IMG/VR virus record: IMGVR_UViG_3300020045_004733
Span: 1 to 32,287 of that record
Length of the DNA: 32,287 nucleotides
DNA from: a virus
Taxonomy: Duplodnaviria; Caudoviricetes
Reading direction: 5' to 3' (one strand)
The position numbers and the translations under genes were made by a program. The notes below the pieces were generated by a model. It was given only the letters and a program-made list of their open reading frames with translations. It was not told where the DNA came from and did no database searches. This document shows, piece by piece, positions 6,921-30,718 of this stretch. Within the stretch, counting starts at the first letter, position 1. Every line of letters starts with the position of its first letter.

Positions 6921-7129
6921 TGTATTGTGGATACTGCGGAAGCAACCTTCATACGATTACGAATTGCCCAAAGACGGCCAGCGGACAGGCGAACAGGCAC
7001 CTCCTTCGATGCACTTATTGCGGATCGCGTGAACACGATATTCAGGCGTGCCCGAAAACATGGGGCGGAAATGCAGCGAGGGCGTGGCACCATGAGACGG
7101 TAAAAGACCATTTTGTAAAGGATCGATGA
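6920..7129 (+). CDS. tandem CCHC zinc-knuckle protein (69 aa)
   Basis: ATG 6920 overlaps the upstream TGA. CGYCGSNLHTITNC and CTYCGSREHDIQAC are both exact CX2CX4HX4C. Confidence 0.8.
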   Translation: MYCGYCGSNLHTITNCPKTASGQANRHLLRCTYCGSREHDIQACPKTWGGNAARAWHHETVKDHFVKDR

Positions 7130-7362
7130 TGGGGAAATATGTTGATGTCCCGATAGATGCAGCAAAGCGGATCGCTGATGAATTTGGCAAGGATCAAGTC
7201 ATTATTGTTTGCTGGGATAAGATCCACGGAAGAACCCACGTCACGACCTACGGAAAGACCGTTGAAGAATGCGAACAGGCGGCAAAGGGCGGGAACTTTG
7301 TCAAGAAGGCGCTCGGATGGCCGGATAAAATGTGCCATGCCCAACCGGAGCGGAAGGCATGA
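7126..7362 (+). CDS. hypothetical protein
   Basis: 78 aa, ATGA-coupled at both ends, globular composition. Confidence 0.7.
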   Translation: MMGKYVDVPIDAAKRIADEFGKDQVIIVCWDKIHGRTHVTTYGKTVEECEQAAKGGNFVKKALGWPDKMCHAQPERKA

Positions 7363-7439
7363 AAACCGCACTGGTCGGCAAAATGAAACAGAAGGCCCTC
7401 ATCAAGAGGGCGAAACGGCGGAAGGGGAAGAGGAAATGA
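7359..7439 (+). CDS. 26-aa highly basic peptide
   Basis: MKTALVGKMKQKALIKRAKRRKGKRK. ATGA overlaps at both ends exactly bridge its neighbours. Not in the ORF track. Confidence 0.5.
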   Translation: MKTALVGKMKQKALIKRAKRRKGKRK

Positions 7440-7942
7440 AAGATCTGACCGCATATGAATCAGTCAAGGATGCCATGAAGACCGGCGACCTCCTGCAATG
7501 GCGGTCAAATTCCCTCATTGGCTCCCTGATCCGGTGGAGAACGAAGTCGAACGTCAACCACTCGTCTCTGGTCCTTCGGCTCTCTGAATACGAAGGCCTT
7601 GAGCGGCGGCGGTTCACTACCGAGGCTCTTGAACATGGAACGGTCCTGAACTACCTTTCCCGGCGCCTTGAGCAGTTCGACGGCGAGGTGTGGTGGTATC
7701 CCCTCAAGGACGAATGGAACGAGAAGCGGCAGGCCGTCGGTGAGTGCGCCCTATCTCTGATCGGCATCCCCTACGACTATCAGAGCATCATGCACCAGAT
7801 TTTCGGCAAGGTTTCGGCGGATGCGCGGTCCCTGTTTTGCTCGGAATACTGTTTCATCTGCTACGGGATGGACGGAAAGGCCCCGACGCCGGCCGACATG
7901 CCTGAACTGGGGATCTACAAGGAAGGGGTGAAAATATTATGA
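7436..7942 (+). CDS. permuted papain-like NlpC/P60 amidase (YiiX/YaeF-like)
   Basis: Start reassigned to ATG 7436. KTGDLL, NHSSLV (His), GIPYD and LFCSE (Cys) occur in permuted order. Confidence 0.85.
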   Translation: MKDLTAYESVKDAMKTGDLLQWRSNSLIGSLIRWRTKSNVNHSSLVLRLSEYEGLERRRFTTEALEHGTVLNYLSRRLEQFDGEVWWYPLKDEWNEKRQAVGECALSLIGIPYDYQSIMHQIFGKVSADARSLFCSEYCFICYGMDGKAPTPADMPELGIYKEGVKIL

Positions 7943-9816: not shown

Positions 9817-11103
9817 ATGTTTTCGATTATTATCCCCATTTTCAACCAGCACGACATGACCGAGGACTGCATCACAGCTATCCGCGAATGCACGCAGGAC
9901 TGTGAAATCATCATCATTGACAACGGATCAACGCCCCCCTTCAAGGCCCCCTTCACCGGGGATATTGAGACGCGGGTGATCCGGAACGAGGAAAACAGGG
10001 GCTTCCCGGTGGCAGTAAATCAGGGAATCCGGGCGGCGAAGGGCGAGACGATCATCCTTTTAAACAACGATGTGGTGGTGACTCCGGATTGGGCGGCCCG
10101 GCTCGAAAGCCATATCACCCCTCTTATCCTGACGCAGCAGGAAATAAAAGATGGGTTTCAGGTTGGCGGCGTTCCTTTGTCGATCGTCGGCCCGCTGACG
10201 AACTATGCCGCGGGCCTTCAACGGGCGCAGATCGCTGACTATCAAAACAAAGAGGAACTTTACAAAGAAGCCTCTGCCCTTTCCGAAGAGCAGGCCGGAG
10301 AAGCGGAAGAGGTCAACTTCGTCATCGGATTCTGCATGGCCTTCAAGCGGTCCCTCTATGACGAGATCGGCCCCTTTGACGAATCCCTGTGGCCATGCTC
10401 CGGGGAAGAGATTGACTTTTGCCTCCGGGCACGGGCGGCTGGCCATAGGATCGGGATTGCCCATGATGTCTATGTCCATCACGAGGGTTCGCAGACGTTC
10501 AAGATCATCGATGCCGACTATGACGCCATTGTGAAGCGAAACGACGCCCACCTTGCCGAGAAATGGGGCGCGGACTTCTGGCAACGTCAAGCGGTTGTGC
10601 CGGCCTGCGAAGGGGTGCGGCTCAACCTTGGGTGCGGTCCTTTTCCGATGCAGGGATTCACGAACGTCGACCAATTTCCAGAGGTCAACCCGGATCTCGT
10701 TTGCGACATAACGGCCCTGCCGTATGAGCCCGGAACGGTCAGTGAGATTTACGCCGGGCATGTCCTTGAACACTTCATGTTTGCGGACGGCCAGAAGGCC
10801 CTGCGCTACTGGCTGACCCTCTTGAAGCCGGGCGGATTGATTAGTGTCGTGGTTCCTGACTATGATTTTCTCGTGAAAGAGTACGTCAAGAACATGACCC
10901 CGGAAAAGCTGATCGAGTTCAACGACACCTATATTTACTCGGGGATTCAGCCGTCGCCGCACCTTTACGCATACAGCGCGGCCCTCCTTGAGAAGTGCAT
11001 GGCAGAGGCGGGCTTCGCAAACATTGAGCGGATGCCGGTCAACCATCCCTATTTCCCCTTTGCTGTCGATTGGCAATGCGGGTTTCAGGGGGTGCGGCCG
11101 TGA
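9817..11103 (+). CDS. GT2 glycosyltransferase fused to C-terminal class I SAM methyltransferase
   Basis: GT2: SIIIPIFN, IIIDNGS, NRGFPVAVNQG, LLNNDVV, EEIDFCLR, VHHEGS. MTase: LNLGCG, GFTNVD, HVLEHF, LKPGG. Confidence 0.93.
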   Translation: MFSIIIPIFNQHDMTEDCITAIRECTQDCEIIIIDNGSTPPFKAPFTGDIETRVIRNEENRGFPVAVNQGIRAAKGETIILLNNDVVVTPDWAARLESHITPLILTQQEIKDGFQVGGVPLSIVGPLTNYAAGLQRAQIADYQNKEELYKEASALSEEQAGEAEEVNFVIGFCMAFKRSLYDEIGPFDESLWPCSGEEIDFCLRARAAGHRIGIAHDVYVHHEGSQTFKIIDADYDAIVKRNDAHLAEKWGADFWQRQAVVPACEGVRLNLGCGPFPMQGFTNVDQFPEVNPDLVCDITALPYEPGTVSEIYAGHVLEHFMFADGQKALRYWLTLLKPGGLISVVVPDYDFLVKEYVKNMTPEKLIEFNDTYIYSGIQPSPHLYAYSAALLEKCMAEAGFANIERMPVNHPYFPFAVDWQCGFQGVRP

Positions 11104-11771
11104 AAATAAGCAATCAGAAACTGGCAATCGGCATCCCCTGCACGTTCCCGCTTATCCCGGATGGCTTCTTCTACTCCTACGCCCTAATGGAAAAGCCGGA
11201 GCATGTCTTTATCCATGCCGACAACGGGCCGATTGATACCTTGCGGAACGACATCGTTAAAAAGGCTCTGATGGCCGGGGCTACAAGATTGATCATGCTT
11301 GACGTGGATATGATCTATCATCCCCAGACAATCACGCGGCTCCTGTCTCACAAGTTGCCGGTGGTTGGTGGCCTGACCTTCCGCCGATATCCACCTTTTG
11401 ACGCCCTCATGCTCAAGGTAAAACCGATCAATGAGCATGTCAACGGCTATGAGAGTGTAGAGGAATGGGGGAAAAATGAACTGATCGAGGTGGACGCGAC
11501 CGGGGCCGGGTGCCTCATGTTCGACATGGAGATTTTCAAGAAGATGCCGCGCCCGTGGTTCCGGTTTCAGAAGCAAGAGGAAACGGGGTCCGTCATAGGC
11601 GAAGACATCGGATTTTGCCAGGAATTAAAGGCGGCAGGATATCGGATCTTCGTTGATACCTCCATCCCTTCGGACCATCTGACAAGGATTGCGGTAAATG
11701 AGGCGACGCACCGCCTTTATACGGCGTGCAAGAGCGCACAAGCGGCAAAGGCCGCCCTCGCGGGCGGGTAG
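11100..11771 (+). CDS. GT-A fold glycosyltransferase (GT2-like)
   Basis: GTG start overlaps the upstream TGA. RNDIVK, MLDVDM (DxD), VDATGAGCL, GEDIGFC, GYRIFVD. Confidence 0.85.
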   Translation: MKISNQKLAIGIPCTFPLIPDGFFYSYALMEKPEHVFIHADNGPIDTLRNDIVKKALMAGATRLIMLDVDMIYHPQTITRLLSHKLPVVGGLTFRRYPPFDALMLKVKPINEHVNGYESVEEWGKNELIEVDATGAGCLMFDMEIFKKMPRPWFRFQKQEETGSVIGEDIGFCQELKAAGYRIFVDTSIPSDHLTRIAVNEATHRLYTACKSAQAAKAALAGG

Positions 11772-26317: not shown

Positions 26318-26836
26318 ATGAACAAGCCCACAAAGGAACAGATCCTGGAATCCATCGCCGCCGGAATGAACGTGAAAGAACAGGCGAAGCATTTCGGCAT
26401 CGGGCTGAGCGCCTTGATGTTGAGGCGGAAAAAGTTTGGCATTTCGGGGAAGGAAGGCAAGACGGGCAGGAAAGTGGGGTCAGCGACTATTGACTACACG
26501 ACGATTGACGCCATGCTTAAGGATCAAGACAAAACAATGCCGGACATAGCAAAGGAAGTTGGGTGCTCATGGATGTGCGTGCGGAATCGGTGGTTAAAAA
26601 CTCATCCGGGGACAAAATATAAGTGCCTGTCACGAGGGACCAACCACAACCGGATCACGCCGGTCAACCTCCTGGGGGCAATGGGATACAATTACGCCGA
26701 GGAGTTGGAAAAGGATTTTCACCGGCTTCACAGGGCGACGTTTCCGTGTGTCCCTTGGGACAAGTTCCGGGCGGCGATCCATGAACTTTGTGCGAGGGGG
26801 ATTAATCCGCTGGCGGGAAATGGGAGGGTGGCGTGA
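26318..26836 (+). CDS. double HTH DNA-binding protein
   Basis: GMNVKEQAKHFGIGLSAL and TMPDIAKEVGCSWMCV. Confidence 0.65.
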   Translation: MNKPTKEQILESIAAGMNVKEQAKHFGIGLSALMLRRKKFGISGKEGKTGRKVGSATIDYTTIDAMLKDQDKTMPDIAKEVGCSWMCVRNRWLKTHPGTKYKCLSRGTNHNRITPVNLLGAMGYNYAEELEKDFHRLHRATFPCVPWDKFRAAIHELCARGINPLAGNGRVA

Positions 26837-27969
26837 ATGAACTTAGCCTATTCACAGGCGCAGGCGGCGGCCTCCTCGGTTCCCTCCTTCTTGGACATAC
26901 CCCAATCGGATACTGTGAGTGGGACGATTACTGCCAGCGAGTCATTGCCGCCCGAATCCGTGACGGAATCCTGCCCGACGCCCCTATCTTCGGCGATATC
27001 AAAACATTCATCAGTGACGGGTACGCCGCAAGCTATGCGGGGCTGGTTGATGTCATTACCGCCGGTTTCCCTTGCCAGCCGTTCAGTGTCGCCGGAAAGC
27101 AAAAAGGAGCCGACGACGAGCGGAATATGTGGCCGGCAACGGCAGAGTGCATTGGAATTGTGCGCCCCCGATTCGTTTTGCTTGAAAACGTGCCGGGAGT
27201 CCGTACCTACCTGCCCGTGGTTGTTAGAGACTTGCGCCGACTTGGGTATGAAGTTTCAAGACCCCTCCTCCTTGGGGCTGACGATGTTGGGGCGCCGCAC
27301 CGAAGGAAACGGGTGTGGATACTTGCCAACAGCACAGCAGCGGGATTATCGGAGTCCAGACCTTCCGGGATCGGTGAATTACGAGCGGAAAGCGGCGAAG
27401 GGATGGACGATAGACCTGAACAGCAAGATTGCCTTACTACCAACCCCCCGGAAGTGCATGACGGGCGATATTTCGGAAGAGCGGAAGGCAGACAGGTTCA
27501 ACAATCTGGAAACGGTATTGAGCAGAGAATTACTTCCGACTCTGAGCGTTACCACGACAGGAGGACCGACGGGCCTTTGCGGAGGATCGGGGAACAGGAA
27601 GAAGTTCAACAGAATGTGGGGGCAACTCCCCACGCCCCGAGCCGAGAAGCATACCCCGCAGAGCCGGGCGGACTTCACGCCGAACCTTGCGGCGAGGATT
27701 CAGGAATTGGCCCCAACCCCTTCCGCCTCAATGGTGACAATGCAGGACTTCGTGCAGGCGAAATATCACAGTTCCAAAAGGCCGAAGTATTCGGAGGTGA
27801 TGCTGCCGACACCGAACATGATGGACGGAGGGAGCAAGGAGACGCACAGGGGCGAGGGAACGAGGCTGAAGCTGTTGGGAGCGGTCAGTGGACAGAGCCG
27901 TGGCCTGAAGTTGCAGCCCGCCTTTGTGGAATACATGATGAACTGGCCGGAGGGGTGGACGGCACTTGA
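26833..27969 (+). CDS. C5-cytosine DNA methyltransferase, alpha chain (motifs I-VIII)
   Basis: SLFTGAGG (I), GFPCQPFS (IV), ENV (VI), HRRKRVWI (VIII). Lacks motifs IX and X. Confidence 0.9.
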   Translation: MNELSLFTGAGGGLLGSLLLGHTPIGYCEWDDYCQRVIAARIRDGILPDAPIFGDIKTFISDGYAASYAGLVDVITAGFPCQPFSVAGKQKGADDERNMWPATAECIGIVRPRFVLLENVPGVRTYLPVVVRDLRRLGYEVSRPLLLGADDVGAPHRRKRVWILANSTAAGLSESRPSGIGELRAESGEGMDDRPEQQDCLTTNPPEVHDGRYFGRAEGRQVQQSGNGIEQRITSDSERYHDRRTDGPLRRIGEQEEVQQNVGATPHAPSREAYPAEPGGLHAEPCGEDSGIGPNPFRLNGDNAGLRAGEISQFQKAEVFGGDAADTEHDGRREQGDAQGRGNEAEAVGSGQWTEPWPEVAARLCGIHDELAGGVDGT

Positions 27970-28156
27970 ACCCCTCCCCCTGGAAAGCATGGAAAAATGG
28001 TTATCAGGAACGACATGGGATGAACCGTGGCCCGACGCAGCGCAGCGGTTGTGCCAAGCCGGAAACGTTTCGGATAGGGTGAATCGGCTGAAGGCGTTAG
28101 GGAACGGGCAGGTAAGCGTAGTGGTTGCAACAGCATGGAGGATTTTAACGCAATGA
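26837..28156 (+). CDS. C5-MTase beta chain in overlapping +1 frame (LPTP repeats, motifs IX and X)
   Basis: Six LPT(P)-type repeats, LQPAFVEYMMNWPEGWT (IX-like) and RLKALGNGQV (X). True start uncertain. Confidence 0.8.
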   Translation: MNLAYSQAQAAASSVPSFLDIPQSDTVSGTITASESLPPESVTESCPTPLSSAISKHSSVTGTPQAMRGWLMSLPPVSLASRSVSPESKKEPTTSGICGRQRQSALELCAPDSFCLKTCRESVPTCPWLLETCADLGMKFQDPSSLGLTMLGRRTEGNGCGYLPTAQQRDYRSPDLPGSVNYERKAAKGWTIDLNSKIALLPTPRKCMTGDISEERKADRFNNLETVLSRELLPTLSVTTTGGPTGLCGGSGNRKKFNRMWGQLPTPRAEKHTPQSRADFTPNLAARIQELAPTPSASMVTMQDFVQAKYHSSKRPKYSEVMLPTPNMMDGGSKETHRGEGTRLKLLGAVSGQSRGLKLQPAFVEYMMNWPEGWTALEPLPLESMEKWLSGTTWDEPWPDAAQRLCQAGNVSDRVNRLKALGNGQVSVVVATAWRILTQ

Positions 28157-28359: not shown

Positions 28360-28520
28360 AAAACAGAAACAAGCGGCAACAGCGGTTAATTCCCGAGTCA
28401 TGCCCGAAATGTAAGAGTGTTTCAATCGTTCCTGATTGCTCAAGATATGGTGAAAACTTCGTACATGGCTGGCATTGTGTGAAATGCGGGTACAATTCAG
28501 ACAACGAGGCAACGAATTGA
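28356..28520 (+). CDS. zinc-ribbon protein (54 aa)
   Basis: MKNRNKRQQRLIPESCPKCKS...WHCVKCGY. SD GAGGAGG, ATGA-coupled. Not in the ORF track. Confidence 0.65.
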   Translation: MKNRNKRQQRLIPESCPKCKSVSIVPDCSRYGENFVHGWHCVKCGYNSDNEATN

Positions 28521-30718
28521 AAAACCAGCCGCTATTTCAAGACATCCCAGATATTGAGTATGAAAAAGGCGTTTACCATCCCGTCCTGACGGTCGTTGAA
28601 AACAGCAAAGGCGTTCTTGATGTTGATACCGTGAAGGGATGCACCTATGGGATGGCAGCATATCCAGACGGCGGGTGTTATGGTGAGTGCTACGCTGCAA
28701 AGACAGCCGCTCTGTACGGGATAGACTTCACCAAGAGTGTGAGCCGTAAGTTCATGGGGCGGGAACATTGCGCCACTATTCGGCGCGTCATGGGACATTA
28801 TGACACGGCATGGTACAGGGTTGGGACCGCTGGAGACCCTTCACATGATTGGGACAATACCATAACCGTTTGCAAGGCTCTATGGTGGAGTAAGAAGATT
28901 CCCGTTATCGTCACGAAACACTGGCTCACGCTTTCAGATGGTCAAATCGAATGGCTCCGAAAGCTCAAGGCGGTCGTGAATACCTCAACGAGTGGACTTG
29001 ACACAACCGCCGAAATAAAGCACCGCGTAGGGCAGCTTGAACGTCTCCGTGTGGCTGGTATAAAGAGCGTCAACCGTGTTGTCACCTGTCAGTTCGGATC
29101 GTCACAGTGGGCAAGGGAGCAGCAAGAAAAGCAAGATTATTTGTTATCGCTGACACCGATCATTGATAATCCACTCAGGGCAAGGAAAACCAATTCCCGC
29201 GTGGTTTGTGGCGATATCATCCTGACCAAAAAGAAAGAATCAATAGGGGGCGGCAAGAATGTATCATTGCATCGTCCTGGAGTATTCCTTGAAACGTGCG
29301 ATAAATGCCCGGACCAATGCGGCGTTGATCGCCTAGACATTCAGGCACAGAAAGAGAGGCGAAAAATGTTGCAGGTTCAAACATCGTTGTTAAGGCAAAG
29401 CGTGGAGTTTCTTTATGTCAAAAGCGTCATAGGTTCGGGGTACGAACAAGACGTGGCGAAGCTGGCTCTTGAGGACGGTATCGCTCAGAGGGCCGCAAGG
29501 AAGAACATGCAGATTCATTCAGCAATTATCCTTAAAATCAACGGCGAATTCAGCGGTTTTATGACATTCCAAGACAACCACGCTTGCAAAGAGTTTTGCC
29601 TTTTACAATCTGTAATCAGGCCATGTCATTATGATGACGATCTTTACCGGGATATGGTGCAGGCTGTCATTAACCAGAACACAAGCGGCTACCCGGCAAT
29701 AATCACGACCGACCCGAAAAGCAAGTTCGAGACGCCGAAGTTGTTTGAAAGTCTCGGATTCGTGACATACCTGAAAATGTCGGGCTTTCATTACATGGTC
29801 AATGGCGACGTTGCGGATGTGCGGCACAAGCTCCTAGCCCACATCACCATGACAAACGCCTGGGATACCGTCAAAGGCGATTGGTTGCGTCTCAAGCGAG
29901 AATGGAACGAGAAGATAAACGCCGCCGGAGCACTGAAAGGCGTACAGAATCCCATGTTCGCCTCGCGTGATGGCTGCTGGCAGGGTTCTAACGGTTTTGC
30001 CAATGTTGTCACAGGGCACTCGCACAACGGGAACGCATCTGTCCTTGACCCCGTGGCTTGTGAGGTCATTCTGAGGTTTTTCATGCCGAAAGCGGGGCGG
30101 CGGGTCTATAACCCTTTCGGCGGCGGGGTTCAGTTTGGGTTCATTTCCGGATCATACGGCTACGATTACACGGCCAGCGAGATTAGGCAGAATCAATGCG
30201 ACGCGAACAATCTGATTTGCGAAGGGCTGAACAGCGCGAAGTGGATCAAAAGCGATTCGTCCACCTATGAGCCGGAAGGGATGTTCGACCTTGTTTTTAC
30301 CTGTCCGCCCTACTACAAGGTGGAAAAATACATCGACTATGACGGGCAGCCGCCCGAAGGTGAAATTAATTCCTTTTCGACCTATGAGCAGTTCAGGGAC
30401 GCACTTTTCAGCGGCTATAAGATTGCAATGGCGCACCTTAACGACAACTGCTTCTTTGTGGTAATGACCGGTGATAGCAGAGACAAAGACGGCGCTTACT
30501 ACTGTTCAGAAGCAGAAACGGAAATGTTCCTGAAAGCGCAAGGATTAAGTATATATAACAAGATCGTTTACCTCGAATGTGAGTTCACGCGGCTTGCACA
30601 TGCAAAAAAAACATTAAACATGCGAAAGTTCCCAAAGCGCGAACAGAAGATCATTGTGGCTTACAAGGGGAGCATACCGGCAATTAAAGAGCTTTATGCG
30701 CCAGTAGGGAGGCTATAG
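28517..30718 (+). CDS. fusion of radical-SAM-like Fe-S domain, GNAT-like domain and N6A/N4C DNA methyltransferase
   Basis: TTG 28517 overlaps the upstream TGA. GC-x11-C-x3-CYA, GTAGDP, IVTK, CDKCPDQC; then GEFSGFM...LFESLGF; then NPFGGG and TCPPYY. Confidence 0.75.
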   Translation: MKNQPLFQDIPDIEYEKGVYHPVLTVVENSKGVLDVDTVKGCTYGMAAYPDGGCYGECYAAKTAALYGIDFTKSVSRKFMGREHCATIRRVMGHYDTAWYRVGTAGDPSHDWDNTITVCKALWWSKKIPVIVTKHWLTLSDGQIEWLRKLKAVVNTSTSGLDTTAEIKHRVGQLERLRVAGIKSVNRVVTCQFGSSQWAREQQEKQDYLLSLTPIIDNPLRARKTNSRVVCGDIILTKKKESIGGGKNVSLHRPGVFLETCDKCPDQCGVDRLDIQAQKERRKMLQVQTSLLRQSVEFLYVKSVIGSGYEQDVAKLALEDGIAQRAARKNMQIHSAIILKINGEFSGFMTFQDNHACKEFCLLQSVIRPCHYDDDLYRDMVQAVINQNTSGYPAIITTDPKSKFETPKLFESLGFVTYLKMSGFHYMVNGDVADVRHKLLAHITMTNAWDTVKGDWLRLKREWNEKINAAGALKGVQNPMFASRDGCWQGSNGFANVVTGHSHNGNASVLDPVACEVILRFFMPKAGRRVYNPFGGGVQFGFISGSYGYDYTASEIRQNQCDANNLICEGLNSAKWIKSDSSTYEPEGMFDLVFTCPPYYKVEKYIDYDGQPPEGEINSFSTYEQFRDALFSGYKIAMAHLNDNCFFVVMTGDSRDKDGAYYCSEAETEMFLKAQGLSIYNKIVYLECEFTRLAHAKKTLNMRKFPKREQKIIVAYKGSIPAIKELYAPVGRL

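Follow-up and report, generated by a model that had tools for sequence, protein, structure and literature searches.

A phage unit of radical-SAM-like, GNAT-fold and CPPY-type SAM domains as a candidate DNA hypermodification system

What would a tailed phage make with a single protein that resembles a radical S-adenosylmethionine (SAM) enzyme, a GNAT acyltransferase and an amino-methylase, yet misses one defining motif of each? Such a protein is encoded in the IMG/VR virus record IMGVR_UViG_3300020045_004733, analysed here over its whole length of 32,287 bases (88% complete; hereafter, the window). Profile matches to capsid, integrase, YqaJ/ERF recombination, C5-methylase, NinG, and DnaB genes mark it as a temperate, tailed phage. 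The open reading frame (ORF) belongs to the rightward early/replication block, occupies 28517..30718 on the plus strand, begins with TTG (another TTG, upstream at 28475, could also serve), and runs as a single open frame of 733 amino acids (aa). Its three domains, hereafter the trio, probably carry out DNA hypermodification of some kind. The specific reading favoured here, put at about 40%, is that they modify the phage's own newly replicated DNA by moving the 3-amino-3-carboxypropyl (acp) arm of SAM onto a base, followed by tailoring by the other domains.

The original prediction described a radical-SAM-like, GNAT, and amino-methyltransferase fusion, and each motif that it named is present in the translation: C42-x11-C54-x3-C58-YA, GTAGDP (103–108), IVTK (131–134), C261DKC264PDQC268, GEFSGFM, CLLQSVI, LFESLGF, NPFGGG (532–537), and TCPPY (595–599). 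These are not chance resemblances, because the cysteines are invariant (59/59), CPPY is kept in 118/118 full-length homologues, and the ratio of nonsynonymous to synonymous change (pN/pS) is low in all three domains (0.09–0.32 in each, from five relatives; uncorrected, with pS near saturation). The homologue search returned 2059 matches among 8000 scored candidates, many probably single-domain; the alignment holds 118 of the 120 homologues listed, two shorter ones being excluded. The best 119 non-self homologues share 67%–86% identity across 88%–100% of the protein, and since fusion also recurs across clusters, an assembly artefact is ruled out. AlphaFold models the full protein with a mean pLDDT of 87.4 and a pTM of 0.60, the linker at 286–292 being of low confidence. 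A promoter and terminator scan did no better than chance, and PDB sequence searches gave nothing useful (scorpion-toxin and PPR rows were chance).

The trio—a radical-SAM-like domain, a GNAT-fold domain, and a class-I SAM domain named here after its CPPY motif—is an old, conserved, widespread, and tightly coupled phage unit. The best 80 of 263 viral loci were collapsed into 66 clusters at 95%: 36 are fused, 14 are split in the same order, and 8 have the radical-SAM-like gene moved downstream, with the remainder comprising 2 fused loci cut by a contig end, 1 frameshifted locus, and 5 without the family's radical-SAM-like domain. Of these five, three have a canonical CX3CX2C enzyme immediately downstream, one lies at a contig edge, and one has none nearby. 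In a second, GNAT-anchored metagenome set (best 80 of 570, 68 clusters, contigs partly shared with the viral set), the radical-SAM-like domain is found in 63/68 clusters, 39 of them fused, and the SAM domain shares an ORF with GNAT in 65/66. Searching from the radical-SAM-like domain, GNAT–CPPY adjoins in 62/67 clusters, and a contig end truncates the locus in another two; searching from the canonical radical-SAM type, GNAT–CPPY is directly upstream in 14/57, three of which are seeds. Other fixed neighbours beyond generic phage genes were not found in the 66 viral clusters. The suggested partnership with the neighbouring C5-methyltransferase was rejected, as such a gene lies within 8 kb in 7/66 viral clusters and within 3 kb in 0/68 metagenome clusters.

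The same radical-SAM-like family occurs at three loci without GNAT–CPPY, among ParB, PAPS-reductase, TAGT glycosyltransferase, and Vut_1 genes near the terminase, surroundings typical of phage DNA-modification loci. Judged by gene content, these are probably other modification loci: L231 (124–3859) includes Vut_1, a C-N hydrolase, a possible TGT-like gene, and ParB; L233 (3170–6406) has a PAPS reductase and two ParB genes; and L234 (951–4768) has TAGT and a canonical radical SAM gene. The coupling of the trio, these neighbours, and the clamp-like motifs described below make the proposed role in phage DNA base modification likely. A canonical SPL-type (spore photoproduct lyase) phage radical-SAM family is also found near the terminase in 43 clusters (L100–L163), with ParB or ParB-DPPY methylase genes in 25, Vut_1 in 6, and a DSGAHS-motif protein in 6.

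The N-terminal domain (residues ~20–272; 28574..29332, plus strand) was matched in Atlas structure searches to Radical_SAM/SPL clusters with a TM-score of 0.65–0.73 over 219–241 residues. Profile alignment by hhalign against canonical CX3CX2C phage radical-SAM enzymes gave an E-value (E) of 2e-5 with 77% probability over 206 columns, a comparison with three sequences gave E 1.5e-4, and TIGR04470 was matched by 2/8 divergent relatives at E 3e-4 and 2e-3, under the model cut-off. The predicted structures and profiles thus point to a partial TIM-barrel fold and homology to the radical SAM superfamily (SPL/PA0069 type), which upholds the radical-SAM-like call as regards fold, with cysteine spacing that is non-canonical. 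The predicted [4Fe-4S] site is the triad C42-x11-C54-x3-C58 (28640..28690, plus strand), and C261-x2-C264-x3-C268 (29297..29320, plus strand) is a predicted auxiliary metal or iron–sulfur (Fe-S) site; all six cysteines are unchanged in 59/59 aligned domains. The canonical CX3CX2C motif is absent from these 59 domains, the spacing being CX9-12CX3C (first spacing x11 in 45, x10 in 9, x9 in 3, x12 in 1, and unread in 1), and is present in 65/65 of the canonical replacement proteins. The radical-SAM-like domain was not seen in cultured phages.

Between this domain and GNAT, the fused gene contains a Shine–Dalgarno (SD) sequence, GAGAGG (29354–29359), 6 nt ahead of an in-frame ATG at 29366 (together 29354..29368, plus strand), with an anti-SD duplex of −7.8 kcal/mol. 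This is the likely start of a 450-aa GNAT–CPPY product. The linker ATG is kept in 33/37 fused loci, split GNAT–CPPY genes begin at the same position, and of 55 linker ATGs, 58% are preceded by a strong SD, compared with 19% of the 575 ATGs found elsewhere in frame (p 2.5e-10), an enrichment possibly inflated by the purine-rich Lys/Glu linker. Conservation of the ATG and SD across fused loci makes two products likely and the arrangement probably old. The two products originally suggested are thus supported, and the accompanying idea of a recent fusion is not, given the conserved internal start and fusion in 36/66 viral and 39/68 metagenome clusters.

Directly after the internal start lies QTSLL (29378..29392, plus strand), which resembles a beta-clamp-binding motif. 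Such a QxxLF-type peptide precedes GNAT in 52/66 viral clusters vs 2/1160 control windows and 2.8% of shuffles, and precedes the radical-SAM-like domain in 20/51; the pattern was defined after inspecting the viral data and then held in 56/67 metagenome clusters. The peptides, whose clamp binding is putative, point to DNA as the target. A target other than DNA—tRNA, a protein of host or phage, or a small molecule of polyamine type—would sit well with the top fold matches (tRNA G-N2 methylases and N-acetyltransferases of proteins), and with phages that encode RNA polymerase-acetylating GNATs (PMC7824862) or polyamine enzymes (PMC9992855). It is nevertheless improbable in view of the clamp-like peptides, the fusion of ParB to sister enzymes, and the DNA-modification genes that surround the radical-SAM family; moreover, no RNA-binding THUMP-like region was seen on inspection of the AlphaFold model.

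The middle domain (residues 295–431; 29399..29809, plus strand) has the GNAT fold that its motifs had suggested: its 160-aa model aligns with NatC (7l1k) at Z 15.8 and rmsd 2.3 over 132 residues, and Foldseek gives E 2e-6. The folds closest to it belong to generic and N-terminal acetyltransferases. Through the family run a basic block, RAARKNMQxHSA (29489–29524, plus strand), and the segment EFCLLQS, both invariant. The GNAT acetyl-CoA motif A, R/QxxGxG/A, occurs in 0/64 sequences, and the loop holds no glycine. Since the usual CoA-binding loop is missing in 64/64, acylation from acetyl-CoA is doubtful. Membership of the family of Mom from phage Mu is not supported either, as the 160-aa model has no helix-turn-helix (HTH)-type insert and the closest folds are those just named. 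Mom is not among the matches listed for the structure searches, which does not in itself exclude nearness to Mom. A tblastn search of 50,697 phage records (likely including Mu) gave no match, and the domain was found in no cultured phage. A stand-alone GNAT family was rejected as a candidate; the best 120 of 208 short matches, not individually inspected, resemble fragments, most of them being on short contigs.

A GNAT that has lost the CoA loop and kept its basic block would suit a non-catalytic DNA-binding module attached to an ordinary orphan methylase (making N6-methyladenine, N4-methylcytosine, or N2-methylguanine), with the radical-SAM domain doing a separate, repair-type job. SPL-type enzymes do repair DNA, the internal start lets GNAT–CPPY act alone, and a few loci have no radical-SAM partner; however, a radical-SAM partner is kept whether the genes are fused, split, or reordered, or another radical-SAM family stands in, which is far beyond the need of an unrelated job and leaves this explanation with a small share of our confidence. 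Some other explanation altogether is very improbable. Joint action of the domains on DNA, the favoured reading, turns on the chemistry of the third.

The C-terminal domain (residues ~445–720; 29849..30715, plus strand) is assigned by fold and PHROG matches (12517 and 498) to the CPPY clade of class-I SAM-dependent alkyltransferases. The SAM-domain call is supported by the fold, which aligns with aTrm11 (5e72) at Z 17.2 and rmsd 2.5 over 178 residues; aTrm11, Trm14, and TrmN are the nearest solved folds (Z 17.2–16.1). Motif I (FxGxG) is present, with NPFGGG-type sequence in 118/118 homologues (NPFGGGVQFG at 30110–30139 in the window, plus strand). The unusual feature is TCPPY (30299–30313, plus strand): motif IV of DNA amino-methyltransferases, [DNS]PP[YFW], is absent, with cysteine at that position in 118/118, and Pfam N6_N4_Mtase scores 18.1 bits vs a cut-off of 26.7. 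At the motif-I Asp position, 80/80 trio-family sequences have glycine, so the acid of the aminopropyltransferase GGG(D/E) motif is likewise missing.

The only cultured-phage relatives of this domain are ParB-linked 'methylases' (29 records), ~30% identical. Among 12 sister neighbourhoods inspected, a SAM decarboxylase (AdoMetDC) adjoins in ZRG1 and P2559S, a PALP gene or fusion is found in Vincenzo and Pam4, and eight have neither. In a wider survey (best 80 of 596 viral and best 80 of 360 genome loci, giving 70 + 76 clusters), an AdoMetDC-like gene lies beside the sister CPPY gene in 50/70 viral and 43/76 genome clusters; the total of 93/146 is inflated, because the sister set comprises the best 80 matches to an AdoMetDC-linked first sequence, and is not phylogenetically independent. 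In controls seeded with a ParB-DPPY methylase, 49 of which show DPPY, the count is 0/65. The ESH motif is kept in 103/104 AdoMetDC matches, and the P2559S decarboxylase beside the CPPY gene is a proven AdoMetDC (PMC9992855).

The decarboxylase co-varies with motif I. Asp is present in 89 members with AdoMetDC and absent in 0, and among those without AdoMetDC it is present in 20 and absent in 32 (one short row excluded, four unreadable; rows not independent). In a quick tree of 117 rows, there is one large Gly clade plus two members, nested among the AdoMetDC-linked ones, in which both Asp and the decarboxylase have been lost. Decarboxylated SAM usually serves as an aminopropyl donor, and, on this co-variation, part of the sister clade very likely uses it. 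All 89 readable AdoMetDC-linked members are FAG-D, the Asp of which corresponds to the aminopropyltransferase GGG(D/E) motif (PMC11107197). This link between sister CPPY genes and AdoMetDC, with an aminopropyltransferase-like Asp, is new in this analysis, and the two-gene unit of ParB-CPPY plus AdoMetDC with FAG-D, present in several phyla (L239, 4441–4830; L240, 4294–4614; 93 clusters among L249–L408), is a candidate DNA aminopropylation system. Gly-type CPPY genes lie beside or are fused to PALP genes, which are like 1-aminocyclopropane-1-carboxylate (ACC) deaminase, in Vincenzo, Pam4, and L401 (L242, 1406–2275; L238, 1512–4001; L401, 3963–4670); Pam4_70 is a single protein made up of ParB-like, PALP, and methylase-type parts. 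A Bacteroidota-linked sub-branch (L287, 4002–5177; L294, L298, L300, L367, and L380) has kept Asp and lost AdoMetDC; the gene immediately downstream is PP-loop-like (SGGKD motif).

Beside the trio, AdoMetDC or PALP genes occur in 0/66 viral and 0/68 metagenome clusters. Together with Gly at the Asp position, this suggests that intact SAM would be used and the acp group moved, GNAT and the radical-SAM domain filling the partner slot. In the favoured reading, the clamp-like peptides would tether the proteins to the replication fork, where the CPPY domain would transfer the acp arm to an exocyclic base nitrogen and release methylthioadenosine; the position could be A-N6, C-N4, or G-N2. GNAT may then acylate the free amine of the arm, probably without ordinary acetyl-CoA. 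The Fe-S domain would remove a hydrogen from the arm, leading to decarboxylation, deamination, or rearrangement, and would hold the place taken beside the sister enzymes by a SAM decarboxylase or ACC-deaminase-like enzyme. The bulky base would presumably blunt host nucleases. We infer these arm-transfer steps for the trio; the folds and motifs, the coupling, the internal start, and the clamp-like peptides are observed. A DNA substrate is consistent with the nearest folds of the CPPY domain, which methylate exocyclic amines of nucleic acids, and class-I folds do transfer acp, as in Tyw2 and MccD (of MccD/MccE; PMC10491745).

Methylation as the first step, as originally proposed, is doubtful, because CPPY-clade partners elsewhere act on SAM's amino-acid arm. 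A course in which CPPY methylates the base, the radical-SAM domain activates the methyl, and GNAT attaches an acyl or aminoacyl group, ending much as with Elp3 or Mom, would account for the obligate coupling of the three domains and agree with exocyclic-amine methyltransferases as nearest solved folds, with Gly at motif-I position 4 as a fit for intact SAM, and with Mom, a GNAT shown to modify DNA with Gly-tRNA (PMC13219725). It leaves unexplained the AdoMetDC and PALP ties of the clade and the Cys at the D/N/S position in 118/118, and the HTH-type insert of Mom is missing; we regard it as unlikely.

Several observations weigh against acp transfer by the trio. For the CPPY domain, the nearest solved folds are true methyltransferases, and the trio family, which shares only ~30% identity with the sister clade and sits on a long branch (3.52), may differ from that clade in chemistry. 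Its motif FGGGVQ[F/M]G lacks both the AdoMetDC-type Asp and the Arg that 30/32 Gly-type sister members carry, and 31/32 such members have no tailoring partner in profile scans, which fits plain methylation. The decarboxylase tally carries the inflation described above, and some phage AdoMetDC homologues instead decarboxylate ornithine or arginine (PMC10407285). As for the partner domains, the acetyl-CoA loop is missing and the nearest GNAT folds acetylate proteins or small molecules; no Pfam or NCBIfam radical-SAM model matched the window protein, and the radical-SAM assignment is built on Atlas models and weak profile matches. Finally, at least three clusters with at least 1.9 kb of flank have no radical-SAM partner (L015, L505, and L528). 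Extending the favoured reading to the clade, with CPPY enzymes as DNA aminoalkyl-transferases and a trio branch that adds acp at the fork, caps it with a GNAT without the CoA loop, and remodels it by radical-SAM chemistry into an undescribed base in hundreds of uncultured phages, is more tentative still.

If this is true, common phage genes annotated as DNA methylases install amino-acid-derived side chains, SAM-arm chemistry having been found described for RNA and small molecules, not for DNA. The trio would then account for a new base in DNA and for a second route by which radical-SAM enzymes, here with an unusual Fe-S motif, act on DNA bases; it might also offer a site-specific way of placing amine handles on DNA.

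Some neighbouring features were also recorded. An 84-aa gene with an SxHExYAVIxEExDELW-type motif, perhaps MazG-like, lies within 1.5 kb of the trio in 6/66 clusters (for example, L007, 4157–4411; L073, 2523–2810; L079, 1358–1639). The C5-methylase of the window spans two overlapping frames (26833–27969 and 26837–28156, plus strand), the N-terminal motifs being in one and the C-terminal PHROG matches in the other, and L075 is arranged likewise (6937–7761 and 6941–7723). The arrangement resembles two-polypeptide methylases such as M.EcoHK31I. At 9817–11771 (plus strand), two glycosyltransferase-like genes lie among head–tail genes, one fused to a methyltransferase domain.

A literature search, supplements not covered, found no paper on the trio, on CPPY transferases, or on acp or aminopropyl transfer to phage DNA, and none testing the ParB-linked CPPY transferases. 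A survey of phage DNA-modification operons by Iyer and colleagues (2013, NAR) may have predicted parts of this picture. The closest solved folds to the CPPY domain, the tRNA m2G methyltransferases Trm11, Trm14, and TrmN (Z 16–17), differ in sharing only 12%–18% identity, in having [DN]PPY rather than CPPY, and in THUMP, which is not evident in the trio, and the context here is phage.

Tyw2, MccD/MccE, and spermidine synthase are methyltransferase folds that move SAM's arm, MccD being paired with a decarboxylase (PMC10491745); none of those compared acts on DNA or is among the top 50 fold matches of the CPPY domain. The GGG(D/E)-like acid of aminopropyl transferases (PMC11107197) is shared by the sister clade and not by the trio family. 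Like the trio, Mom has a GNAT fold for which action on DNA, with no standard acetyl-CoA reaction, is proposed; it acts alone and requires an HTH-like insert of ~35 residues (PMC13219725), whereas the trio GNAT is ~140 aa, lacks the insert, and is always joined to a SAM domain.

In Pseudomonas phage M6, gp53 is an SPL-like radical-SAM glycinyl-thymine isomerase acting on phage DNA, with a possible second Fe-S cluster, and together with the PaMx11 gp48 acetyltransferase it parallels the trio in using radical SAM and acetyltransferase enzymes to tailor an amino-acid adduct (PMC8989533). That route requires 5-hydroxymethyldeoxyuridine, a kinase, and an amino-acid:DNA transferase, none of which recurs beside the trio in the 66 clusters, and the cysteine spacing of the trio is non-canonical. 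The ParB-linked CPPY 'DNA methylases'—P2559S_66 (with AdoMetDC P2559S_67; Croceibacter), ZRG1, Vincenzo gp1 and gp2, Listeria B054 gp77, and PHROG 498/12517—share with the trio a homologous SAM domain (~30% identity), the same motif order, and CPPY. In the trio, by contrast, the N-terminal partner is GNAT instead of ParB, a radical-SAM partner stands in place of AdoMetDC or PALP, and the SAM domain carries the FGGGVQFG motif.

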